64,000 nucleotides of DNA from an uncultured Thermoplasmata archaeon (GCA_963719945.1 CAVRDX010000001.1:76358-140357), one strand, 5' to 3'. Counted from the stretch's first letter, positions 985 to 29,304 are shown. Made by a program: numbers and translations. The notes: generated from the sequence alone by a model not told the origin.

Positions 985-3183
985 ATGGGAAGAAAAGAAG
1001 ACAATATCCGCAAGGCGCAAGCCCTGATGAGGCAGACCAAATTCATCCGTAACATCGGAACCGCTGCCCACATCGACCACGGAAAGACGACGCTCTCCGA
1101 CAACCTGATCGCTGGATCGGGCATGATGTCCGGGGATCTTGCTGGCAAGCAGCTGCTCCTCGACTTCGATGAGCAGGAGCAGGCCAGAGGGATCACGATC
1201 AACGCCGCGAGCGCGTCGATGGTTTATGATTACAAGGGTCAGGAATACCTGATCAATCTCATCGACACACCTGGTCACGTCGACTTCGGCGGCGATGTCA
1301 CGAGGGCCATGAGGGCCATCGACGGTGTCATCATCCTCGCTTGCGCGGTCGAAGGTGTGATGCCTCAGACGGAGACCGTCATAAGACAGGCAATCAAGGA
1401 GAGGGTTCACCCGATCCTGTTCATCAACAAGGTCGACAGACTGATAAACGAGCTTCAGGTGACGCCCGAGCAGATGCAGGCGCGTCTCGCTGGTATCGTC
1501 AACGAGGTCAACGAGAAGATCAAGAAGCTGTTGCCGCCCGAGCTGAAGGACAAGTGGGCGTTGAAGGTCGAGACTGGCAACGTCATATTCGGCTCCGCTT
1601 ACAACAACTGGGCTATATCCGTGCCCTACATGAAGGCCACTGGTATCAATTTCAAGCAGGTGTACGAGTTCTGCAAGAATGGCGACCAGAAGACCCTTGC
1701 GAAGAAGGCTCCTCTCCATGAGGTCCTGCTCGAGATGGTCATCATACACCTTCCAAACCCCGATGAGGCCCAGAAACTCAGGATACCCATCATTTGGCAC
1801 GGGGACCCAGAGTCTAATTTCGGCAAGGGGATGTTGAACTGCGATCCAGAAGGTCCGGTGGCTCTCATGGTCACAAAGATCATAGTGGATCAGCATGCTG
1901 GTGAGGTCGCAGTCGGCCGTCTCTTCAGTGGGAAGATCCGAAAGGGCCAGGAGCTGCATGTCATAGGCATGCCAGACCCCAACAGGGCCCAGATGGTCTC
2001 GCTCACAGTCGGCGCGGACAGGATCCCTGTCGACGAGCTGGATGCGGGCAACGTCGTCGCGGTATCCGGACTCAAGGATGCGATCGCTGGTTCCACTGTC
2101 TCCAGTGACCCTGAGATGGCGTCTTTCGAGAAGATCGTTCACTACAGCGACCCTGTCGTCACCGTGGCCATAGAGGCCAAGCACACGAAGGATCTGCCTA
2201 AGCTGGTGGATGTACTTCGCACAGTCGCGAAGGCAGACCCGTCGATCCAGGTCGAGATCAACCAGGAGACGGGCGAGCATCTGATGTCTGGCATGGGCGA
2301 ACTGCATCTTGAGATCACTCAGTACAGGATAGTCAACGAGCACAAGGTCGAGATCAAGACCTCACCGCCAATCGTCGTGTTCAGGGAGTGCGTGCTTGGA
2401 ATGGGCGGTCCGTTCGAGGGCAAGTCCCCGAACAAGCACAACAAGTTCTACATCGAGGTCGAACCGCTCTCAGCAGATATCGTCCAGGCCATGCGTTCCG
2501 GCGTCATCGATGTCGAGGGCAAGGTCAAGGACTCGAAGGCGGTCGCGAGGCAGCTCCAGGATCTGGGCATGGATAGGGACGAGGCGAGAGGCATCGTGGC
2601 CTTCCATGGCACCAACATGCTCCTAGACATGACCAAAGGTATCCAGTACCTGCACGAGACGATGGAACTGATAAAAGAAGCGTACATAGAGGCCATGAAC
2701 CGAGGCCCGCTGGCCAACGAGAAGTGCATGGCTGTCAAGATCAAGCTCGTCGATGCCAAGATGCATGAGGACAGCATACACAGGGGCCCGGCCCAGGTCA
2801 TTCCAGCTGCAAGATCCGCTATCTACGGTGCGATGTGCCAGGCTGGCCGTACCCTTTACGAGCCCATGCAGAAGGTCTTCATCAATGTGCCCCAGGACGT
2901 CATGGGTGACGCGATCCGTGAGGTCCAGCAGAGGCGCGGAGTGATTGAGGACATGAAGCAAGAGGGCGAGATGACGATCGTAGCTTCCAAGTGCCCAGTC
3001 TCCGAGATGTTCGGCTTCGCAGCATCCATCAGGGGTGCCACGAGTGGAAGGGCGCTCTGGTCGACTGAGAACGCTGGCTTCGAGCCGATGCCCAAGGACC
3101 CCTTGGACAAGGCCGTGCTGCAGATAAGGCAGAGGAAGGGACTCAAGCCTGAGCCGTACGACGCTGCGTACTACTCGAGCTGA
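985..3183 (+). CDS. fusA: translation elongation factor aEF-2
   Basis: 732 aa. GTPase motifs [21 protein letters not shown]. Diphthamide-site context [11 protein letters not shown]. Sits in the str-operon position after S7. Confidence 0.97.
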
Positions 3184-3271
3184 TGGAAGAGCCACAGTCC
3201 AGATTCCCTTTGCAAAAAGACTAATATACCAAGAGCATCATGCTCGAAAAGAAGACAATGGAGGCCATGAT

Positions 3272-4543
3272 ATGGCAGAGAAACCACATATGAACTTGGT
3301 GTTCATCGGACATGTTGACCACGGTAAGTCGACCAGTGTCGGTCGCTTGCTCCTCGACACGGGCCACGTTGAGGCCCACATCATCGAGAAGTACAGGAAG
3401 GAGGCCGAGACGAAGGGCAAGGCGACTTTCGAGTTCGCATGGGTCATGGATGGACTGAAGGAAGAGCGAGAGAGAGGTCTCACCATCGATGTTGCACACA
3501 AGAGGTTCAACACCTCGAAGTACTACTTCACCATAATCGACGCACCTGGACACAGGGACTTCGTGAAGAACATGATCACTGGTACCAGCCAAGCTGACGC
3601 AGCGGTCATCGTCGTGTCGTCGATCGAGGGTCCCCAGGCCCAGACGAAGGAGCACATCTTCCTGGCAAGGACGCTCGGTGTGAACCAGATCGTTATCGAT
3701 ATCAACAAGATGGACGCGGTCAAGTACGATCAGGCGAAGTACGAGGAGACCAAGAAGGCAGTGACCGAGCTTTTGAAGACGGTCGGGTACAAGACGGACG
3801 AGATTCCGTTCATCCCGTGCTCTGGATTCAAGGGCGACAACATTGCATCCGTCTCTGCGAACACTCCTTGGTACAAGGGCCCGACACTCGTTCAGGCACT
3901 CGATGGTCTGAAGCCCCCGGCACAGATGACCGACAAGGCACTCAGACTCCCAGTGCAGGATGTCTACAGCATCACTGGTGTAGGAACCGTTCCAGTGGGC
4001 AGGGTCGAGACCGGCGTGCTCAAGCCAGACATGAAGATCATCTTCATGCCATCGAACAAGGTCGGAGAAGTCAAGTCGATCGAGATGCACCATGAGATGC
4101 TCACACAGGCTTTGCCTGGTGACAATGTCGGATTCAACTGCAGAGGCATCGCCAAGACCGATATCAAGAGGGGAGATGTCGCTGGTCCAGTAGACAACCC
4201 ACCGACGGTCGCGAAGACCTTCACCGCGCAGATAATGGTCCTGAACCACCCGAGCGTGATCACTGTCGGATACACACCAGTGTTCCACATGCACACAGCT
4301 CAGGTAGCGTGCACATTCCTTGAGCTCCAGAAGAAGCTCGACCCGAGGACGGGCGCTGTCAAGGAAGAGAACCCGCAGTTCCTCAAGACCGGTGACGCGG
4401 CGATCGTGAAGATCCAGCCGTCCAAGCCACTGGCGATTGAGAAGGCGAAGGACTTCCCGCAGCTCGGCAGGTTCGCGGTCAGAGACATGGGCCAGACCGT
4501 CGCGGCTGGCATGGTCGTGGATGTCGAAAAGAAGGAGATGTAA
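3272..4543 (+). CDS. tuf: translation elongation factor aEF-1alpha
   Basis: 423 aa. [21 protein letters not shown] motifs. Follows EF-2. Confidence 0.97.
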
Positions 4544-5207: not shown

Positions 5208-7241
5208 ATGGGGGCAGAACGAGCAGAGGATGGGGCCGGGTCTCACAACCATCCGTCAGGGGACCATCATGCGACGTTTCGATTCTTGGTGGAGAATTCC
5301 AGGGATGTCATATTCAGGCATCTGGCGGTCCCCGAACCCCGGACGATATACATCAACCCTTCATGCCAAACGTTGCTAGGCCATTCCCCGAAGGATTTCC
5401 ATGCCAACCCGAACCTTCTTCCGAGCCTGTTTCATCCCGATGACTTGCCGATATTCCATGGCCTCCTCGATGGCAGTGTGCCGCATACCGAGCCCGCTGT
5501 TGCCCGTATGATGCGAAAAGACGGTTCCGTCCTATGGACGGAGCATAGCGCAATCCCTCTGAGGTCCGAAGACGGTCAGATCGTGGGGATCGACAGCTTC
5601 TGCCGTGATATCTCTGAGCGGATGCGTTCGTCGCAGGAAGTGATCGCACGCGGTAGGATGATCGAGGATCTTCTCCAGAGGACCAAGAATCTGATTGAGA
5701 GCGCTCCCATGGCCATAATCGAGCTGGATTCGGATCTTAGGATAATCAACCATAATTCACACCTTTTACAGTATATGTCTCCAGGGGGACCTGATAGTGG
5801 CGTCATAGGAAAGCCGTTCATGGATGTCTTCCAGGCCGCGGATACTGGGTCATTGATGGATATGGTCGAATCGTGCCGTGTCACGAAGGGATCCACACAC
5901 AACAGGTTCCTTCCGATCAGAATAGTTGCCGATGACCAACCCGCAAAGGCTATGGTGTATGATGTCAGCATAGCACCCCTGATTGCTCCGGACCGCTCTG
6001 TCTCAAGCATCTTGGTGATGATGAGGGACATGTCCGAACTGGGGGAACTCGATAGGGAACGCTCATCGATGACCGACCTGCTATGGGTGATGTCCTCCGT
6101 GGAGAACATGCAGGAACTCCTGGACAATGCCATCCGCGTGCTGACGACCTCGTTCGGTGCCGATGCCGGCATGATATTCTTGATGGACTCCGACTTTGGC
6201 AGGTTGTTCCTCGAATCCAAGTTCGGTCCGCTCGAAGGCATACCAATATCTCTGGATGATTCCCGCGGAATCGAGTCGACCTCGCTATTTCACTCTCCAG
6301 ACTCTTCTGGTTTTGAATCCGTGGGGTGTGCTGGGTCGCCTCTCGTGTCGGAGGTCATACAGTCCTCAGGCATGTCCTCTGGGATATGGGCGCGAATGAC
6401 TTCAGGGCCACATGTGCTTGGATATGTTCTGCTGTTGTCCCAGGACCACTCACCGTTCGACGACCAAGCTAAGATATTCTTCAAGATACAGGTGAACACG
6501 CTAGCATATGCTGTCCAGAGGATGCAGATGCTGGGCGAGGCGGAACGAGCAACGGGAGAATCGGCGACCTACCTCGATCTATTGTGCCACGATATAGCAA
6601 ACTACTCCTCGGCATTGATGTCCTTCAGTGAGCTCATCGAGGATAGTGCCGAAGCACCAGATGTAGTCCGGCAGCACGCACAGGATATGAGGAAACAGGT
6701 ACGAGTCATATCCACGATGATTGAGAGGCTGCGCAAGCTGACCGGGGTTAGCCATCAGCCCACTGCTATGGTCGAGGTCGATCTCGCGCAGTCAATCATC
6801 GATCTCATCGCAAGGCAGATGGATGGCGCGGAGGATGACCAAGCGATCTCCATCGATTTCGATCCCGCCACGCCGCATGCCATCGCACTGGCTGATTCAA
6901 AGATTGAGGTGGCCATTGAGAACATACTGGTGAACTCCATCGAGAACACCATCACCGAATCCATAGATGTGACCATATCTTTGACAGAATCTCCTGATCG
7001 ACATGGCTATTTGGAGGTTGTCATAGAGGACAGGGGGACCGGCATTCCAGACGATATCAAGTCAAACCTGCTCAAGCCGTCAAAGGATTACTGGGAGATC
7101 AAGCGCGGTTTTGGCATGGGCCTCTTCATCTCGAAGATGATCATCGAGCGTTCGCGCGGCCAGATATCCATATCCGATCGCGTGCCGGGCGATTGGACAC
7201 AAGGCACAAAGGTTTCGATATTGCTTCTAAGAGGTGGCTAG
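5208..7241 (+). CDS. multi-domain sensor histidine kinase (two PAS-like regions, GAF-like region, HisKA, HATPase_c)
   Basis: 677 aa. PAS-like FRFLVENSRDVIFR... and IESAPMAIIELDSDLRIINHN.... H-box LCHDIANY. ATP-binding G-boxes DRGTGIPDD and GFGMGLFISKMIIE. The response regulator starts at the very next base. Confidence 0.85.
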   Translation: MGAERAEDGAGSHNHPSGDHHATFRFLVENSRDVIFRHLAVPEPRTIYINPSCQTLLGHSPKDFHANPNLLPSLFHPDDLPIFHGLLDGSVPHTEPAVARMMRKDGSVLWTEHSAIPLRSEDGQIVGIDSFCRDISERMRSSQEVIARGRMIEDLLQRTKNLIESAPMAIIELDSDLRIINHNSHLLQYMSPGGPDSGVIGKPFMDVFQAADTGSLMDMVESCRVTKGSTHNRFLPIRIVADDQPAKAMVYDVSIAPLIAPDRSVSSILVMMRDMSELGELDRERSSMTDLLWVMSSVENMQELLDNAIRVLTTSFGADAGMIFLMDSDFGRLFLESKFGPLEGIPISLDDSRGIESTSLFHSPDSSGFESVGCAGSPLVSEVIQSSGMSSGIWARMTSGPHVLGYVLLLSQDHSPFDDQAKIFFKIQVNTLAYAVQRMQMLGEAERATGESATYLDLLCHDIANYSSALMSFSELIEDSAEAPDVVRQHAQDMRKQVRVISTMIERLRKLTGVSHQPTAMVEVDLAQSIIDLIARQMDGAEDDQAISIDFDPATPHAIALADSKIEVAIENILVNSIENTITESIDVTISLTESPDRHGYLEVVIEDRGTGIPDDIKSNLLKPSKDYWEIKRGFGMGLFISKMIIERSRGQISISDRVPGDWTQGTKVSILLLRGG

Positions 7242-8408
7242 TTGCCACCGAGGATACTCATAGTCGATGACGAGAAGCTTATAGTCCAGATACTCAAGGA
7301 CACACTCTCTTTGAAGGGTTTCGACGTGGTGGGGTTCGCTTTCGACGGGGACTCTGCGGTCAAGAAATATTTTGAACTCTCACCCAGACCTGACCTGATC
7401 ATAATGGACCACAGGATGCCGGTCAAGAGTGGCATCGAAGCGATGGATGAGATACTCGCCACTGACCCGTCGGCGAGGGTACTGTTCCTTAGCGCAGATG
7501 CGAGGATTCGCGACATCGCATTGGCCAGGGGTGCCATCGGATTCATCTCGAAACCCTTCGAAGGCTTGGACCTATTACGTGCAATCAAGAACGCTCTCGC
7601 GGAACAGAGGGACAAATCTCTCTCAGGATTCTCTATTCCAAAGGCCGTCAGTTCCTTATTCAAGCAGGGATACGAGTTGGGCGTGGAGGTCGGCTATTAT
7701 GGACACATGGAAACGGTCGGATGGGTCAGCTCAAAACGAAAGGAACTGCTTTCTCTCGCCCAAGGATTGGAGGTCCTGCGAGAATACAATTCGGAATACG
7801 ATAGAGGCAAGGAGGATGGGCGACACAGACGCGTGAAGCCCGAAGTATTGCGCAGAGAGGATCGCGGTGACGGCCACGCGATGTCTGGGGGAGGTGGTGG
7901 CATGGGCACGCGGGCAGAGGCCACCTCTTTCGTTGGGGTAGGCTCGATCTCTGATCCGTCATCTGCTCGACAATTGATATCGGAAGCTCCACTTCTTGTT
8001 CAGGCGGATATTCAAGGACTAGCTTCAATGTTCGTCAGATATCATGATTCGTCTGTCGGGAGCGTGCAGGAACTCTATGCAATGCTCGAATCGATGGTCC
8101 CATTGAGACCGAATGACATCTCTGGAAATGGCAGGGAAATCATTGATCGTGGTCTACAAGCTTTGGTCAGAAGTGGGTGGGCGACTTTCTACTCGGTGGA
8201 CCTGATCGACATGGCTAGCGGAGAGGCCACCATTAGCATCGAATCTGTGTTCGCAAGATGCTGTGGCCGTTTCGACCATACAATATGTAGGTTTCTTGAG
8301 CCGATATTAGGTGAGATGCTTACACGAGCAGTTGGTCGCAAGGCAACTGTTAGGGAGATATCTTGCATTGCTACTGGGTCGAATGCATGCGTATTCTCAA
8401 CCGTATGA
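7242..8408 (+). CDS. response regulator: CheY-like receiver domain plus C-terminal V4R-like domain
   Basis: TTG start directly after the kinase TAG, with GAGGTGG at 7231-7237. REC motifs ILIVDDE, IIMDHRMP, FISKPF. C-terminus ...CCGRFDHTICRFLEPILGEML...VREISCIATGSNACVFS resembles V4R (4-vinyl reductase) domains. Confidence 0.8.
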   Translation: MPPRILIVDDEKLIVQILKDTLSLKGFDVVGFAFDGDSAVKKYFELSPRPDLIIMDHRMPVKSGIEAMDEILATDPSARVLFLSADARIRDIALARGAIGFISKPFEGLDLLRAIKNALAEQRDKSLSGFSIPKAVSSLFKQGYELGVEVGYYGHMETVGWVSSKRKELLSLAQGLEVLREYNSEYDRGKEDGRHRRVKPEVLRREDRGDGHAMSGGGGGMGTRAEATSFVGVGSISDPSSARQLISEAPLLVQADIQGLASMFVRYHDSSVGSVQELYAMLESMVPLRPNDISGNGREIIDRGLQALVRSGWATFYSVDLIDMASGEATISIESVFARCCGRFDHTICRFLEPILGEMLTRAVGRKATVREISCIATGSNACVFSTV

Positions 8409-23933: not shown

Positions 23934-24419
23934 TTACTCTTTCGGAGAGATCGCATCCATCGCTAGCGCGACTGCGTGTTCTGGCGTTTCGGCTTCGACC
24001 AGATGGGGTATCTTTTTGTGATATGCTCTTTCAAGCTTCCATGTTCCGAGACCTATCACGGTCTTGCCTAGGTTCAGTGCATGGCCGATCTCCGAGAGCG
24101 TACCGAACTCCCCTCCGACAGCGATCACTATGTCTGCAGTCTTCACGAGCATGACGTTCCTGCCGACCCCCATCCCTGTGACGATCGGTATCTGGACATA
24201 TGGGTTCGCATCGTTCCGGTCGTCAGAGGGTATTATGCCGATCGTGAGACCTCCTTCATTCCTCGCGCCCTTGCACACGGCCTCCATCACGCCTCCCAAT
24301 CCCCCACAGACCACAGCTGCGCCGTGTTTCGCGATTTCGGACCCCAGCTTCTCGGCCTGACGGTATGTCTCCTCGTCCGGCCTGTTCGCCCCTATAACCC
24401 CTATGATCTTGAACGCCAT
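23934..24419 (-). CDS. TIGR00725 / LOG-like Rossmann-fold protein
   Basis: IIGVIGANRPDEETYRQAEKLGSEIAKHG..VVCGGLGGVMEAVCKGA...GGLTIGIIP...GGEFGTLSEIG is the typical family layout. Confidence 0.75.
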   Translation of the reverse strand: MAFKIIGVIGANRPDEETYRQAEKLGSEIAKHGAAVVCGGLGGVMEAVCKGARNEGGLTIGIIPSDDRNDANPYVQIPIVTGMGVGRNVMLVKTADIVIAVGGEFGTLSEIGHALNLGKTVIGLGTWKLERAYHKKIPHLVEAETPEHAVALAMDAISPKE

Positions 24420-24533
24420 TTCATTACTACATGGTGCTCTTCCGACTTAAATTCAATCCAGGGCACTGGCCATCCATCGACATGTTTATTAGGTAACCGA
24501 CCCGATATTGACGCAAGTATTGGAGGCTCCCCC

Positions 24534-25064
24534 ATGCCAGATATTAGGGATAGGATTGAGGAAGACAGGGGTATTCTGAAGAAGATCCAAAATTATGTTC
24601 CTGGATTCAGAGGATACAGGCGCAGAGAGGATCTTCGTGACGCGGACCGCATGCTCAGGGCTCAATTGGCACAGAAACTCAGCGATGAGAGGAGAGGTCT
24701 TGAGGAGTGCAGAGGCCTGCTGGTGCAGAGCTATGGCTCAAAGGAGCGGGAACTGATTGGCGGCCTAATCAATCAATTCAAGAAGACCGAAGGATTGGTC
24801 CTTCATGCTGAGACGGGCTATTCTGGATTCGTGGCAGATATCCAGATCAAGGAGGAGCAGCTCGACAAGCTGTACGAGTACGATGCGAGCATGCTCGACC
24901 ATCTCACATCGATCACTGCGAGCATAGAGTCACTCAAGAATTCCCTGATGGCGGCTGATGAGACTACGAGCCACAGGGATATCATGAACATCAGGGCTAG
25001 GATCACCGATTTCGAGGACAAGTTCAATCGCAGAATGCGCGTGATAGAAGGCACGGAGGTGTGA
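24534..25064 (+). CDS. helical / coiled-coil protein of unknown family; first gene of the SPFH zinc-ribbon operon
   Basis: ATG 24534 is preceded by GGAGG (24522-24526). 176 aa, rich in heptad-like charged helices (MPDIRDRIEEDRGILKKIQNYVPGFRGYRRREDLRDADRMLRAQLAQKL...). The ORF upstream of this ATG is antisense overlap with 23934-24419. Confidence 0.7.
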   Translation: MPDIRDRIEEDRGILKKIQNYVPGFRGYRRREDLRDADRMLRAQLAQKLSDERRGLEECRGLLVQSYGSKERELIGGLINQFKKTEGLVLHAETGYSGFVADIQIKEEQLDKLYEYDASMLDHLTSITASIESLKNSLMAADETTSHRDIMNIRARITDFEDKFNRRMRVIEGTEV

Positions 25065-25068
25065 TGTA

Positions 25069-26187
25069 ATGAGTGTCATAGGGGCAGCAACTTTCAAGTG
25101 GGAAGATGTGGACAAGCGCACGAACATAATGTACCGCATGCCTCGAAACATCCGATTCAACGACAACATAGTCGTTCGTGAAGACGAGGTGGCGGTGTTC
25201 TACAGGGACGGAAAGGCGCTGGCCTACATAGATAGACCAGACAGATACGCCCTTTCCTCGCTTAACGCGCCGATTGTCGGAGCCATCGTGAAATTCCTTT
25301 CAGGCGTCCAGCAGCAGGCTGAAGTCATATATCTTCAGAAGCGTGCGATCGATGGCAAGTTCGGCAGCAAGCAGCCATACCAGTTCCGGGACAAGGAGTT
25401 CGGAATGGTCAATCTGCGCGTGTTCGGGGAGTTCCGATACAAGGTCGCGTCACCAGCCAACTTCGTGAACGAGTTCGTCGGAACGCTCAACTATTCTGCG
25501 AGCGCGGAGATAGAGGAGAGGATCAAGGAACAGATGGTCATACTGATCTACGACTCCATCGGCGACATGAAGAACGAGGGTATGGGTGTCGCTGACATGG
25601 CGAGCAACCTGACCAGCATCGAGCAGGTCGTCCTGTCACGGACAAAGGATCATTTCGACCTCTATGGTATCTCGATCGACAAGATATCTGGATTGTACAT
25701 TTCATTGCCTGAAGAAGTCCAGAAGGCGGTTGATACGCGTGCATCGATGCAGATACTCGGTACCAACTATGTCCAGTACCAATCCGGACAGGCCATGCGC
25801 GAGGCAGCTGCGAATCCTGCCGGCGGTGCTGCTGCGGCAGGTGTTGGCGTCGGGGCTGGGATCGGCATGGGATGGACCATGATGGATTCTATGCGACAAC
25901 CATCACCTGTGCCTGGGCAGCCGGCTCAGCCACAGTCGATGCCTGGGGTTGCATGTCCGAAATGTGGCACTCAGAACCCGCCCACGGGCAAGTTCTGCTC
26001 ATCGTGTGGCGCGAAGCTCGGGGCTGTCACGGTCGAATGTCCGAAATGCAAGGCGGCTGTTCCAGAGACCTCCAAGTTCTGCCCGGAATGCGGTGGTCCG
26101 ATCGGAGGGAACAAGAAATGTGCTTCCTGCGGCGCTGAGGTGCCTGTGAGCGTGAAGTTCTGCCCTGAGTGTGGGAAGACACCTTGA
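25069..26187 (+). CDS. SPFH/Band-7-like protein of the YdjI/COG4260 ('virion core protein-like') type with three C-terminal zinc ribbons
   Basis: The N-terminal roughly 250 aa follow the YdjI-type pattern (VVREDEVAVFYRDGKA..., NLRVFGEFRYKV..P.NFV, ISLPEEVQKAVD, YQSGQAMREAA). The C-terminus has three CxxC-x(9-11)-CxxC units (CPKCG..CSSCG, CPKCK..CPECG, CASCG..CPECG). Confidence 0.85.
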   Translation: MSVIGAATFKWEDVDKRTNIMYRMPRNIRFNDNIVVREDEVAVFYRDGKALAYIDRPDRYALSSLNAPIVGAIVKFLSGVQQQAEVIYLQKRAIDGKFGSKQPYQFRDKEFGMVNLRVFGEFRYKVASPANFVNEFVGTLNYSASAEIEERIKEQMVILIYDSIGDMKNEGMGVADMASNLTSIEQVVLSRTKDHFDLYGISIDKISGLYISLPEEVQKAVDTRASMQILGTNYVQYQSGQAMREAAANPAGGAAAAGVGVGAGIGMGWTMMDSMRQPSPVPGQPAQPQSMPGVACPKCGTQNPPTGKFCSSCGAKLGAVTVECPKCKAAVPETSKFCPECGGPIGGNKKCASCGAEVPVSVKFCPECGKTP

Positions 26188-26219
26188 ATCCAATGGCATG
26201 ATTGAGGTCTGGTTGATGG

Positions 26220-26975
26220 TTGGGTGGGAAATTGGCATCAATAAAATGTCCGAAGTGCGCAGCGCCTGTGACGTTCGACGCTGAATCCAAGTTCGTGAAA
26301 TGTTCGTACTGCACATCGCAGATATTCATCGACAGGAGTGGAGCGGGTTTCTACTACGCCCTTCCATATGCAGTCAGCGAAACGAGCGCCATCGGCACGT
26401 TCCGACGCTGGGCGGCCGGGTCGACCAAGGCAAAAGACCTTGACAAGGCTGCTCAGATCGCAGGTGTGAAGAAGCAGTATTTCCCAGTCTACATGTTCAA
26501 GCGAGATGTCAATGGCAAGGAGCAGGTCCTGATAGAACCAGCTGGCTCGACCACACTGCCTGGCCTGCACAGCCTGAAGGTGCCAGCGGGGGATCTCAAG
26601 ATATACGACGATTCTTTCGATGTCGGTGGCGCCGAGTTGATCAAACCCGACATCGAGATGCTCTCCTACATGGACAATCTTCCAGGAAAGCCCAAGGAGC
26701 AGGCCCTGGTGTTCTTCCCGATCTGGAAACTCGATTACGTGTTCAATCAGAAGAGGTACGAAGTCATCATCGATGGCTCTGCAGGTGAGGTCTTCTCAGC
26801 CGAGTTCCCGACACGGAGCTCGAGCGCCTATGTGGCCGTCGCTGGGATAGGATTCGTCGCATTCGTTGTCGAAGGTCTCATCGCAGCGTCCTCTCTTCCC
26901 CTCGCGCTGGGATTGATGGCGTTGACCGTTGCTGGTGTCTTCGCAAGTGCTTTGTTCGTCGCAAGGAGGATGTGA
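26220..26975 (+). CDS. zinc-ribbon protein paralog 1 (N-terminal Zn ribbon, duplicated Y-x-P-x-W beta module, two C-terminal TM helices)
   Basis: TTG start. CPKC...CSYC ribbon. The LPYAVSETSAIGTFRRW...YFPVYMF and FFPIWKLDY motifs are shared with the next two genes. C-terminal TM hairpin AYVAVAGIGFVAFVV / LALGLMALTVAGVFASALFV. Confidence 0.7.
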   Translation: MGGKLASIKCPKCAAPVTFDAESKFVKCSYCTSQIFIDRSGAGFYYALPYAVSETSAIGTFRRWAAGSTKAKDLDKAAQIAGVKKQYFPVYMFKRDVNGKEQVLIEPAGSTTLPGLHSLKVPAGDLKIYDDSFDVGGAELIKPDIEMLSYMDNLPGKPKEQALVFFPIWKLDYVFNQKRYEVIIDGSAGEVFSAEFPTRSSSAYVAVAGIGFVAFVVEGLIAASSLPLALGLMALTVAGVFASALFVARRM

Positions 26976-26979
26976 TGAT

Positions 26980-27981
26980 ATGGCCGGCATATCAGTAGGA
27001 CTCAACTGCCCCGCATGTGGTGGAGCCATATCTGTCGAAGAGGGAGAGAACACCGTCATCTGCCAATACTGCGATTCCACTCTCTTCATCGAGGGGGACA
27101 AGGGCGTCTCCACGATCGCATTCAGTAACAGGGTCGCGAAGGATTCTGCCATGAAGGCGACTCAGACATGGTGGACCCGAGGTTTCAAGGCAAGGGACCT
27201 CAAGCACACTGGGCAGGTCACCGAGATCTATCCGATATATCTGCCGTTCTGGAGGGCATTGACCCGGGTGGCAGGCTGGATATGTGGATACGAGGAACGG
27301 AGACACACCGATCAGAAGGGGAATGTCCGGGTCGAGAAGATACCGAAGGAAGTGATGGTGCTCCAGGATTACACGTTCTCTGAGATCGCATGCGATCCAG
27401 GCGATCTCGGCATCCGGACTCTGAAGAACTTCTCGGGCGCTACTGGGTTCGCAGATTTCGATATGATCCCCACATTCGAAGCGACCACGAGCAGGGACGA
27501 TGCCGTCGTCCGCGCGAAGAACGATGCCCTGGCAAGGGCGAAGGCTAGCGTGCGAGTACCTCATGTGACCTTCCAGAAACTGCATGTCCTTCCGAAGCGT
27601 CTGTCGATGGTCTACTATCCCGTATGGGTCGTCAGATACAACTACAGGAACAGGATGTACATGTCCACGGTCGATGGCGTAACTGGCCAGATCATGTCCG
27701 GACGCGCTCCTGGCGATCCCATGTTCCAGAGCCTCGCGGTCACAGCGGGGACATCCTTGGGCGGGATAATCGCTGCTCTCGGAATCATCTTCGCCGGCGG
27801 GAGCGCAGAGATAGCGATTGGCGGGCTCGCCATAGGTATCGGTCTCCTCTATGTCACATACAGATTCTTCCGACACGGGTCTGAGATAATCGAAGGCGAG
27901 TTCAAGGAGAAGAAAGCTTCATCGAAGCAGGCTCTCAGGGAGATCCAGGGCATCGCCAAACAGCTACAGGGGAGGTACTGA
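26980..27981 (+). CDS. zinc-ribbon protein paralog 2 (Zn ribbon, larger duplicated module, two TM helices, C-terminal charged helix)
   Basis: ATG 26980 after AGGAGGA (26964-26970). CPAC...CQYC ribbon. IYLPFWRAL and VYYPVWVVRYNY motifs, then STVDGVTGQIMSG. TM hairpin near residues 270-315. Confidence 0.75.
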   Translation: MAGISVGLNCPACGGAISVEEGENTVICQYCDSTLFIEGDKGVSTIAFSNRVAKDSAMKATQTWWTRGFKARDLKHTGQVTEIYPIYLPFWRALTRVAGWICGYEERRHTDQKGNVRVEKIPKEVMVLQDYTFSEIACDPGDLGIRTLKNFSGATGFADFDMIPTFEATTSRDDAVVRAKNDALARAKASVRVPHVTFQKLHVLPKRLSMVYYPVWVVRYNYRNRMYMSTVDGVTGQIMSGRAPGDPMFQSLAVTAGTSLGGIIAALGIIFAGGSAEIAIGGLAIGIGLLYVTYRFFRHGSEIIEGEFKEKKASSKQALREIQGIAKQLQGRY

Positions 27982-27982
27982 G

Positions 27983-28570
27983 ATGAATGTGATCCAAGTG
28001 ACATGTCCGTCCTGCAACACGCCGATATACTCCAAGGTGCGGGATCGGCTTTTCTACTGCAACAGATGCAATACCATGCACGTCCGGGACGGAGGGGTCG
28101 AGAAACTGGATTTCGAGATCGCTGAGTTCAATCCATCCGCTCAGGGAGAGAAGGTGTACCTGCCGTTCTGGAGGATGTATTGCTCATTCACCATACATTC
28201 GAAGAGTGTCGAAGGTGGCACTATCTCCCGGCTTGCTTCATGGCTACGCGGAGGTGGGAATAGCGGAAGCCTCTTCATCTATGTGCCCGCAACGGAGATG
28301 GACACGGCCACTTTCAAATATTATTCGACTTTGCTCACCGCGAACCCTCCGAGATACAACACGAGGTTGAACTTCGGGGACGTACGGCGGATGCCTGCGG
28401 TGATGAAAAGAGATGAAGCTGTTGAGTTGGCTGATTTCGTGGTCGTCACCATGGAGGCTGAGAAACCAGGCATACTCCAGAAGCTGGATTACTCGCTGAC
28501 CGTGAACGATTCGAAGGTCGTCTACCTGCCATTCGTACTCTCACAGTCCGGCATGGCACCAGCATTCTGA
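27983..28570 (+). CDS. zinc-ribbon protein paralog 3 (soluble, no TM)
   Basis: ATG lies 1 nt after the preceding stop, with GGAGGT upstream. CPSC...CNRC ribbon. VYLPFWRMY and VVYLPFVLS motifs. Confidence 0.75.
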   Translation: MNVIQVTCPSCNTPIYSKVRDRLFYCNRCNTMHVRDGGVEKLDFEIAEFNPSAQGEKVYLPFWRMYCSFTIHSKSVEGGTISRLASWLRGGGNSGSLFIYVPATEMDTATFKYYSTLLTANPPRYNTRLNFGDVRRMPAVMKRDEAVELADFVVVTMEAEKPGILQKLDYSLTVNDSKVVYLPFVLSQSGMAPAF

Positions 28571-28575
28571 ATGGC

Positions 28576-29304
28576 TCAATCACTGGGTTTCCGCGGACGC
28601 TTCGTGAGGAAATCTCTGATAATATCCGCGTGATCGAAGGCCATCTCTGGCAGCTGGTCGATGTCTACCCACTCAGCAGCGCTGGCATCGTCTCCGGCTC
28701 TGACGGTCCCCTTCTTCCCGCGAAGATGGTAGACTGCTGTCACGAAATGCCCTCTAGGGTCCCTATCCGGCGAGGAATAGACACCGACAAGGTCCATGAT
28801 CTCAGTCACAAGTCCCGTCTCCTCCTGCACTTCACGGACCACGCAATCCTCCAGTCTCTCCCCGTGATTCAAGAAACCACCGGGGAGCGCATGGTATCCC
28901 ATGAATGGGTCGTTCTTTCGCCTGATCAGCAGGATCTTGTCATCCCGCATCACGATCCCGTCCGCGGTCACGGAGGGCTTCTTCCAGTTGTTCTCGAACT
29001 GACTTCTCAGGTGGACGGACTTGTTCTCGTATTCTCTGAGCACCGTCTCGCCGAGTTCAGTGAGTTCCGTCTCGCCCCCATGGCTACCTCCGCGGGTCGA
29101 AGCCACGACATCTCCTCCGGCGTTCTCGGATATTCTGTGTATTATGCCCCATGCATGACGATACGACATCTCCATTTCCTTGGCGGCTTTCGAGAGTGAT
29201 TTTGTATCCTTGATGATCCTCAGGAGTTTTGCTCGGCCATCGCTGATTATGAACCTGTCATCACGAACCAGCCAGAACTTCAATCGAAGGTCGTACACGA
29301 TCAT
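28576..29304 (-). CDS. fusion protein: ModE-N/LysR-type winged HTH plus NUDIX hydrolase domain
   Basis: N-terminus LLRIIKDTKSLSKAAKEMEMSYRHAWGIIHRISENAGGDVV..TRGGSHGGETELTELG is ModE-N-like. Intact Nudix box GFLNHGERLEDCVVREVQEETGL. Lies 13 nt downstream of hutU on the same strand. Confidence 0.8.
   Translation of the reverse strand: MIVYDLRLKFWLVRDDRFIISDGRAKLLRIIKDTKSLSKAAKEMEMSYRHAWGIIHRISENAGGDVVASTRGGSHGGETELTELGETVLREYENKSVHLRSQFENNWKKPSVTADGIVMRDDKILLIRRKNDPFMGYHALPGGFLNHGERLEDCVVREVQEETGLVTEIMDLVGVYSSPDRDPRGHFVTAVYHLRGKKGTVRAGDDASAAEWVDIDQLPEMAFDHADIIRDFLTKRPRKPSD

Follow-up and report, generated by a model that had tools for sequence, protein, structure and literature searches.

Within a 64,000-nucleotide (nt) stretch of DNA from an uncultured Thermoplasmata archaeon (GCA_963719945.1 CAVRDX010000001.1:76358-140357; the whole stretch is referred to here as the window, and all positions are counted along it), five plus-strand genes at 24534-28570 encode a small helical protein (gene 1), a soluble SPFH protein of the Band_7_1 family (gene 2) and three zinc-ribbon proteins (genes 3 to 5). 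Gene structure, family memberships, homologies between the parts and gene order across phyla were computed here. By analogy with Bacillus subtilis, the evidence tips modestly in favor of this operon being a relative of the YdjGHI (SamGHI) membrane scaffold that does without PspA and without a TPM-domain protein, includes a new conserved partner in gene 1, and would act as one membrane-associated SPFH system.

SPFH proteins (flotillins, stomatins, prohibitins and HflK/C) occur in all domains of life, and what they enclose or organize is mostly unknown. To our knowledge, B. subtilis is the only organism in which work has been done on the soluble Band_7_1 branch, and there its known partner is PspA. 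The present locus and at least 120 related ones indicate that a large part of this branch is paired instead with an unstudied four-helix protein and, in archaea, additionally with one to three YdjG-like anchor proteins. The SPFH and YdjG-like components of the operon are of kinds already known; what is new is the gene 1 family, which is tightly paired with Band_7_1, the lack of both PspA and a TPM protein, and the expansion of the anchor to two hairpin paralogs plus one soluble protein.

Gene 1 is paired with a Band_7_1 SPFH gene in archaea and bacteria

Related loci were collected with a hand-made degenerate DNA pattern for the gene 1 motif PG[FY]xGY...RxADxxLR, which yielded at least 120 genome blocks of 8 kb. 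These were analyzed by local profile searches, with the ribbons removed, and by position, and neighboring families were counted on the same strand only (antisense shadow open reading frames, or ORFs, dominate the high-GC loci). All counts below are among the loci listed. The archaeal blocks come from Thermoplasmata/Thermoplasmatota, Methanomassiliicoccales, Methanocellaceae, Methanomicrobiales, Methanocorpusculum, Thermoproteota and a Micrarchaeota metagenome-assembled genome (MAG), and the bacterial blocks from Chloroflexota (many), Myxococcota, Armatimonadota, Vulcanimicrobiota/Eremiobacterota, Binatus and a proteobacterium.

At 89 of the 107 informative loci, the gene immediately 3' of gene 1 encodes an SPFH protein, with a median gap of 15 nt. 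Among archaea, a Band_7_1-type SPFH gene is directly 3' of gene 1 in 44 of 48 loci with room for it, and three more are overlapping ORF calls; the bacterial figure is 45 of 59 loci with room, the SPFH gene being one gene away in a further six. No gene is more tightly linked to this SPFH clade than gene 1, and the pair is found in many bacteria without genes 3 to 5. An initial annotation of the window, which had seen gene 1 as occupying the position of PspA, therefore understated its place in the system.

The zinc-ribbon partners are more variable. A gene 3/4-type protein is encoded further downstream at 23 of the 28 archaeal loci with at least 2.5 kb of room. All five genes reappear in the same order in L018 (Methanocellaceae), L028, L109 and L001, and a second Methanocellaceae locus (L059) shows the same start of the order and ends at the block edge; orthologs of gene 5 hold the same last position in 10 loci, L018 among them. 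Two Thermoproteota loci (L021 and L107) carry gene 1, the SPFH gene and two gene 3/4-like genes, and many Thermoplasmata carry gene 1, the SPFH gene and the gene for one soluble protein of about 325-340 amino acids (aa) made up of two DZR ribbons, one ribbon and the domain. The triplication of the zinc-ribbon partner to which the initial annotation drew attention is thus lineage-specific. Co-conservation with the SPFH gene, on which the same annotation had staked its proposal, was observed: the cluster recurs across phyla.

Chloroflexota show another arrangement. At 23 loci, a gene on the same strand upstream of gene 1 encodes a 173-aa protein in which two membrane segments are combined with a winged-helix/PCI-like region and, at the C-terminus, a ribbon of the CPxCG...CPYCG type (in L094 at 7161-7682, minus strand, directly upstream of gene 1 and 12 nt away). 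This protein may be a bacterial counterpart of the archaeal anchor proteins. A DUF2207 membrane protein is encoded further upstream at 19 loci (e.g. L055, 1175-3058). The recurrent theme is a soluble Band_7_1 protein with ribbon-first, often membrane-anchored partners, joined in a large subset by gene 1.

Gene 1 is a predicted four-helix protein of a widespread, unstudied family

Gene 1 has no Pfam family. The one named relative, NCBIfam model NF047596 ("LIMLP_15305 family"), matches it over its full length (E 3.8e-11; 6-170 to 9-172 of 175) at 43.2 bits, short of the equivalog cutoff of 210. Since the match is full-length and yet scores below the cutoff, gene 1 is best regarded as a distant superfamily relative and not as an equivalog member. 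One paper was found that mentions the LIMLP_15305 locus tag, and it contains nothing on function. A profile search over 1.84 billion cluster representatives returned 1,185 relatives at E<=1e-3, nearly all of them 165-185 aa long, and orthologs within Thermoplasmatota are 66-95% identical. The family pattern is IPG[FY]xGYxxxExxRxADxxLR near the N-terminus, followed by a mid-protein GYxG loop and then ExxLxxxYxxD. A longer ORF of 327 aa, from 24081 to 25064, runs across the divergent SLOG gene upstream; because every one of the 120 homologs listed begins with MPDIR or MADIR, we place the start of gene 1 at 24534 and take the longer ORF to be an artefact.

The AlphaFold2 (AF2) model of gene 1 (predicted local distance difference test score, pLDDT, 84; predicted TM-score, pTM, 0.82) has a helix at the N-terminus, followed by a compact bundle of four helices, each about 30 residues long (helices at 4-21, 31-63, 69-90, 107-139 and 143-172). 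The helix order in this model suggests that the protein's two conserved Gly/aromatic loops both face one end of the bundle. The C-terminus, R-V-IEGTEV, is conserved among orthologs, with G173, E175 and V176 invariant and I171 and T174 at least 90% conserved. It has a core, [VI]-IEG-x-E, in common with the juxtamembrane motif of gene 4, YRFFRHGSEIIEGEF; this shared core could be a short motif used in docking, or could have arisen by chance.

Some gene 1 homologs are fused to other modules. Two (P0325 and P0356) carry a C-terminal DUF4178, a domain that also occurs beside Band_7_1 and in PspA operons, and three (P0256, P0264 and P0265) start with a DZR-type ribbon, in P0256 with a Pro/Ala-rich linker between the ribbon and the gene 1 homolog. 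The C-terminus of gene 2 carries the same kind of ribbon/linker module. The fusions with the ribbon and with DUF4178 tie gene 1 to the same protein network. A further protein, P0283, joins the first half of gene 1 to the last two-thirds of an SPFH domain; it looks like a deletion or an assembly chimera involving neighboring genes and was not counted as evidence.

Gene 2 has the architecture of YdjI

Gene 2 matches Band_7_1 (PF13421), which we take to be the family of YdjI/SamI and COG4260, at E 3.2e-34 (118.8 bits against a cutoff of 24; profile positions 7-210 of 211). Its SPFH domain (aa 24-228) is followed by an Ala/Gly/Pro-rich linker and three CxxC-x10-CxxC zinc ribbons, and the protein also matches DZR (2.1e-21) and Zn_Ribbon_1. 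These matches uphold the initial assignment of gene 2 as an SPFH protein ending in three ribbons. A sequence scan gave no hydrophobic segment. The lack of a membrane anchor, the low-complexity linker and the C-terminal zinc fingers make up the architecture of YdjI (PMC8581546).

Genes 3 and 4 resemble YdjG

Genes 3, 4 and 5 each open with a CxxC-x14-CxxC ribbon and contain two aromatic-x-P-[FVI]-[WYV] motifs, exactly as the initial annotation had quoted them. It had also described two of the three proteins as ending in a transmembrane hairpin and one as soluble, and indeed genes 3 and 4 have two C-terminal hydrophobic segments each and gene 5 has none. Genes 3 and 4 are paralogous over the whole of their cytoplasmic part (BLASTP E 2e-16; family-profile HHalign 99.6%, E 2e-23). 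The alignment of gene 5 with gene 4 is limited to the ribbon and the first YLPFW strand (HHalign 96%, E 4.5e-9, 67 columns); the proposal that all three are paralogs thus stands in full for genes 3 and 4 and in part for gene 5, which by this alignment appears to be a diverged, shortened, soluble relative of gene 4.

Orthologs of gene 4 are 64-95% identical. In its AF2 model (pLDDT 72, pTM 0.55), the ribbon (5-36) is followed by a helix (54-67), long beta-hairpins (79-136) and a disordered stretch; the second half has a helix (172-190), strands (195-242), two membrane helices (247-299) and a C-terminal helix. Each aromatic-x-P motif begins a sheet after a helix, which fits an internal duplication. 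The two hydrophobic helices of the hairpin are joined by a loop of about 5 residues, and with so short a loop between hydrophobic helices almost nothing of genes 3 and 4 would be exposed outside. On this predicted topology, the ribbon and the alpha/beta domain should be cytoplasmic and the protein held in the membrane by its hairpin.

Beyond the ribbon, genes 3 to 5 and 19 diverse relatives had no match in Pfam, NCBIfam or PDB sequences, and Foldseek with the full-length gene 4 model returned only meaningless matches to pore toxins (TM-score about 0.1). The helix-plus-sheet modules and a "DGxTGxV" ending may be compatible with a YpeB/PepSY-like or NTF2-like fold, the kind assigned to the domain of YdjG; Pfam PepSY had no match among 19 diverse family members. 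DUF4178 was also considered as the domain of genes 3 to 5 and was rejected (HHalign 0.1-0.2%).

A wider family connects these proteins with YdjG. Some related archaeal loci (e.g. L032, encoding P0391) carry a protein that joins two ribbons to the same domain and a single membrane segment. P0391 has 3,803 homologs at E<=1e-3 in archaea and bacteria, and its family aligns with that of gene 4 along 230 columns that span the ribbon and the entire domain (HHalign 99.4%, E 4e-21), and with gene 3 at 98.8%. In five of the seven contigs sampled (L124, L126, L128, L129 and L131), a member of this two-ribbon family is encoded directly downstream of a Band_7_1 gene with a SHOCT or DZR tail. YdjG consists of N-terminal zinc ribbons, an uncharacterized alpha/beta domain and a transmembrane segment (Ravi et al. 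2024, PMC11237479), and the two-ribbon family matches it in architecture and in linkage to Band_7_1. The parallel with YdjG drawn in the initial annotation is strengthened by the alignment of genes 3 and 4 to this family, the usual downstream neighbor of Band_7_1. Both genes have the YdjG-like succession of ribbon, helix/strand modules and C-terminal membrane element, having a single ribbon in place of two and a hairpin in place of the transmembrane segment; the full architecture is absent from gene 5, given its partial alignment and lack of a hydrophobic segment.

Many zinc-ribbon partners, P0006, P0008, P0408 and P0487 among them, are annotated as RPC12/RpoP, "primosomal protein N' (replication factor Y)" or "LSD1 subclass zinc finger protein". 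Since these labels derive from the ribbon alone, they are almost certainly wrong.

Operon structure and genomic setting

The ORF listing confirms five plus-strand ORFs at 24534-28570 (Table 1). The intergenic gaps, read at the junctions in the sequence, are 4, 32, 4 and 1 nt from gene 1 to gene 5, and a GGAGG-type Shine-Dalgarno sequence lies 6-12 nt ahead of genes 1, 2, 4 and 5; the gaps of 1-4 nt suggest translational coupling. Upstream, a divergent minus-strand gene (23934-24419) encodes a SLOG cluster 4 (LDcluster4, PF18306) protein, and downstream a convergent minus-strand gene (28576-29304) encodes a NUDIX hydrolase. With flanking genes so oriented, the five form a self-contained unit, and the earlier description of an operon-like set in which four of five genes have good Shine-Dalgarno sequences is borne out.

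The start of gene 3 deserves a correction. The first in-frame TTG is at 26220, and a second, at 26232, is preceded by GGTGG. Orthologs of gene 3 are 247 aa long and begin M-A-S/Q-I-K/R-C-P-K-C, and here M-ASIKCPKC begins at 26232; because the orthologs begin at this point and GGTGG lies upstream of it, 26232 is the more likely start. The gap between genes 2 and 3 would then be 44 nt rather than 32. The sequence TTTATTAGG ahead of gene 1 could be an archaeal TATA box.

The neighbors of the locus are housekeeping genes (urocanase, NOG1 GTPase, the large subunit of DNA polymerase II and an ABC transporter), and the surrounding synteny is the same in a related genome. The window is archaeal, the closest homologs are in Thermoplasmata/Thermoplasmatota MAGs, and a mean column identity of 75-76% in sampled alignments points to strong purifying selection.

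In the NUDIX protein, the NUDIX domain occupies aa 114-232 and the N-terminal stretch of about 110 aa has no Pfam assignment at E<=1e-5; a NUDIX gene also follows the cluster in the related genome L001. LDcluster4 was considered as a conserved partner and rejected as probably not a general one, since it occurs at 5 of the listed loci (about 100 of which have room upstream) and on one bacterial contig. On that unrelated contig, L128, an LDcluster4 gene (3025-3615) and a small zinc-ribbon gene lie divergently upstream of a Band_7_1 and YdjG-like pair.

Table 1. Genes, motifs and domains of the operon, with a candidate promoter element
Feature	Position	Strand	Description
Candidate archaeal TATA-like box TTTATTAGG	24484..24492	+	about 45 nt upstream of gene 1 start, read by eye
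Gene 1	24534..25064	+	176 aa, predicted soluble four-helix bundle, unstudied family
Gene 1 motif PGFxGY	24600-24617	+	conserved family-wide
Gene 1 motif GYSG	24816-24827	+	conserved family-wide
Gene 1 C-terminal IEGTEV	25044-25061	+	conserved in close orthologs
Gene 2	25069..26187	+	372 aa, soluble SPFH protein, Band_7_1 family
Gene 2 zinc ribbon, CxxC-x10-CxxC	25954-26007	+	aa 296-313
Gene 2 zinc ribbon, CxxC-x10-CxxC	26038-26091	+	aa 324-341
Gene 2 zinc ribbon, CxxC-x10-CxxC	26119-26172	+	aa 351-368
Gene 3	26220..26975	+	251 aa, or 247 aa from 26232
Gene 3 ribbon	26247-26312	+	
Gene 3 motif YFPVY	26478-26492	+	
Gene 3 motif FFPIW	26712-26726	+	
Gene 3 predicted membrane hairpin	26832-26888 + 26904-26960	+	
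Gene 4	26980..27981	+	333 aa
Gene 4 ribbon	27007-27072	+	
Gene 4 motif YLPFW	27238-27252	+	
Gene 4 motif YYPVW	27613-27627	+	
Gene 4 predicted membrane hairpin	about 27733-27867	+	
Gene 4 juxtamembrane cytosolic motif YRFFRHGSEIIEGEF	27859-27903	+	after hairpin, largely invariant in orthologs; C-terminal helix next
Gene 5	27983..28570	+	195 aa, soluble
Gene 5 ribbon	28004-28069	+	
Gene 5 motif YLPFW	28157-28171	+	
Gene 5 motif YLPFV	28523-28537	+	

Discussion

From these results we infer the physical contacts, topology, oligomeric state and physiological role of the five proteins as follows. Gene 2 would be cytosolic and, like other SPFH proteins, would presumably form large oligomers, with no membrane anchor of its own. 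The hairpins of genes 3 and 4 would sit in the membrane, and their cytoplasmic ribbon and alpha/beta domains would most likely serve as receptors that recruit the gene 2 oligomer, while gene 5, being anchorless, could cap or modulate this SPFH-receptor interaction. Gene 1 most likely binds gene 2 directly, as a regulator, an adaptor or a client; any specific role for it is held with much less confidence than the overall picture. The likely output would be a patch of cytoplasmic membrane that is organized or protected under envelope stress. A function in membrane stress or remodeling, as the initial annotation had suggested, is proposed by analogy with B. subtilis, and the high conservation and housekeeping context argue for core membrane maintenance over a conflict system.

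Several observations weigh against such a scaffold. A gene 3/4-type protein is found at none of the 39 bacterial loci with at least 2.5 kb of room, which means that not every version of the system relies on genes 3 and 4 for anchoring. At 8 of 59 bacterial gene 1 loci there is no SPFH gene in the 8-kb block, and in two of the seven contigs with a two-ribbon protein (L127 and L130) this protein has no Band_7_1 neighbor; the parts can thus function separately as well. The alpha/beta domain of genes 3 to 5 is without a structural match, the model of gene 4 is of moderate confidence (pLDDT 72), and the term YdjG-like, as applied to genes 3 and 4, is based on architecture and on linkage to Band_7_1.

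The operon might instead be mainly a signaling device, in which the zinc-ribbon proteins or gene 1 relay the state of the membrane to gene expression rather than the whole protecting the membrane mechanically. SamG and SamH have been proposed to relay membrane state in B. subtilis, and loss of SamI there reportedly brings global changes in transcription, with unbalanced SamG-SamH activity (bioRxiv 10.64898/2026.02.06.704340). The ribbons of genes 3 to 5 resemble the TFIIB, RpoP and S27e types, and the combination of membrane segments, winged-helix/PCI-like region and ribbon in the protein encoded upstream of gene 1 in Chloroflexota would also suit such a relay. We nevertheless consider this unlikely, since no DNA-binding domain was detected in genes 1 to 5 beyond generic ribbons, no conserved kinase, response regulator or sigma factor belongs to the cluster, and proteins that expose almost nothing outside the membrane, as genes 3 and 4 appear to do, would be poor sensors of external signals.

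Gene 1 could also be a functional, perhaps very divergent, substitute for PspA or ESCRT-III that, once recruited by the SPFH and zinc-ribbon proteins, would polymerize on the membrane and remodel or seal it. It heads the operon, as pspA heads pspA-ydjGHI, it is all-helical in the AF2 model, and links between SPFH proteins and ESCRT-III/PspA recur in bacteria and archaea (PMC11237479; PMC11188069). The initial annotation could not assign gene 1 to PspA/ESCRT-III by eye, and none of the profile and fold searches made such a match. Pfam returned no PspA_IM30 or Snf7 match at E<=1; the gene 1 family profile retrieved no PspA, Vipp1 or ESCRT-III from all PDB sequences; and HHalign of this profile against Escherichia coli PspA gave a probability of 1% (the PspA sequence used was validated against 4whe at E 4e-82). 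Foldseek of the gene 1 model against the PDB had no PspA, Vipp1 or ESCRT-III in its top 50, the best match being IncA (6e7e; E 0.02, TM-score 0.5), a generic four-helix bundle, and against BFVD it found nothing useful, with phage PspA/IM30 only at a TM-score of 0.23. On these grounds the identification of gene 1 as PspA or ESCRT-III was rejected. The model, a compact helical bundle, lacks the long alpha1-alpha2 hairpin of the ESCRT-III type, and its N-terminal helix is charged and not amphipathic; even a substitution in function alone is, in our judgment, decidedly unlikely.

An antiviral defense or abortive-infection module built around the SPFH protein is very improbable. Genes 3 to 5 do have weak PADLOC matches to the candidate families HEC-08 and PDC-S64 (E 0.001-0.05), and a historical label for COG4260 proteins, used in the initial annotation, is "virion core protein-like". 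The PADLOC matches, like those to PHROG, are confined to the zinc ribbons, however, the operon encodes no nuclease, protease, NTPase or other effector, and both the syntenic housekeeping neighborhood and a sequence conservation very high for a conflict system speak against it. That the genes are neighbors by descent only, with no joint work, is hardly credible: conservation within Thermoplasmatota alone proves little, as the whole region is syntenic in close relatives, but the gene 1-SPFH and SPFH-zinc-ribbon pairs each recur in distant phyla with unrelated flanks, and the short gaps between the genes and the fusions of gene 1 homologs point the same way.

The membrane scaffold is therefore the reading that we retain. 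It may be extended, speculatively and with some but only a low chance of being right, to the view that the gene 1 family is an ancient, obligate and hitherto unrecognized partner of cytosolic Band_7_1 proteins in archaea and bacteria, that it is the effector or gatekeeper of a cage formed by the SPFH protein at the membrane's inner face, and that together with the hairpin-anchored ribbon proteins it forms a membrane maintenance machine in archaea that is independent of ESCRT-III and PspA.

The system is well defined, widespread and testable; its function is assigned by analogy, and no surprising mechanism has been demonstrated. Its compact and strongly conserved set of five proteins allows direct tests of SPFH recruitment and partner binding, and its recognition also corrects labels often wrongly given to its zinc-ribbon partners, such as "RNA polymerase subunit RpoP" and "primosomal protein N'".

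Comparison with known systems

A literature search (LIMLP_15305, DUF4178, COG4260/Band_7_1, and SPFH with zinc ribbon) found no publication on gene 1 or on this cluster, in line with the initial statement that no characterized archaeal system of this composition was known. Several systems nevertheless share parts with it. Operons of the Band_7_1-DUF4178-DUF350-polyamine type form a variant, described by Ravi et al. (2024, PMC11237479), that has a band-7 protein in place of the CesT/Tir-PspA pair, and one such operon, on a Novosphingobium plasmid (NZ_CP063446, 5962-12811; locus L002), encodes Band_7_1, two ribbon+DUF4178 proteins, DUF350, a polyamine aminopropyltransferase, an FAD oxidoreductase and SpeD. 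Like the archaeal operon, these have Band_7_1 followed by ribbon-first proteins with a beta-rich domain, and some gene 1 homologs are fused to DUF4178; they differ in that the domain of genes 3 to 5 has no detectable relationship to DUF4178 and that the archaeal operon has no polyamine genes.

The nearest report from archaea concerns the "Meth_adaptin" ESCRT loci of Methanobacteriales, whose SPFH+coiled-coil+zinc-ribbon protein likewise places an archaeal SPFH protein with a ribbon in a conserved membrane-related cluster, though in a different context (Makarova et al. 2024, PMC11188069). They include Vps4, ESCRT-III and adaptin-appendage proteins, which are absent here, and gene 1 and genes 3 to 5 are not reported in them (PMC11188069).

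Two bacterial arrangements also share parts with the operon. The gene 1-Band_7_1 dyads of Chloroflexota, Myxococcota, Armatimonadota and Vulcanimicrobiota (loci L005-L122) have gene 1 directly upstream of the same SPFH family. They differ in having no homologs of genes 3 to 5, and in Chloroflexota a different membrane protein and DUF2207 are encoded upstream. The two-gene modules in which Band_7_1 (with SHOCT) precedes a protein of two ribbons, domain and membrane segment (L124, L126, L128 and L129) have the same two families in the same order, whereas they lack genes 1 and 5, have a single partner gene and carry a SHOCT tail instead of ribbons on the SPFH protein. Their partner genes are often misnamed "primosomal protein N'", and no characterization of these modules was found.

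The closest characterized system is that of B. subtilis, in which YdjG and YdjH, both membrane proteins, are required for soluble YdjI/SamI to assemble into membrane foci, and YdjI/SamI localizes PspA in its turn (PMC8581546; bioRxiv 10.64898/2026.02.06.704340). Unlike pspA-ydjGHI (pspA-samGHI), the archaeal operon has no PspA, gene 1 being an unrelated four-helix bundle, and no TPM-domain YdjH/SamH, with no TPM_phosphatase match in the five proteins or the flanking genes. Its zinc-ribbon partner is present three times, once as a soluble protein and each time with one ribbon rather than two; two of the copies have a membrane hairpin where YdjG has a transmembrane segment; the SPFH protein carries three ribbons; and the host is an archaeon. 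The two systems share, on the other hand, an SPFH protein of the Band_7 type that, like YdjI/SamI, is soluble, has a low-complexity linker and carries zinc finger(s) at its C-terminus, a membrane protein that combines N-terminal ribbon(s), an uncharacterized alpha/beta domain and a membrane segment, as in YdjG/SamG, and the organization of these genes into one operon headed by the gene for a helical protein.

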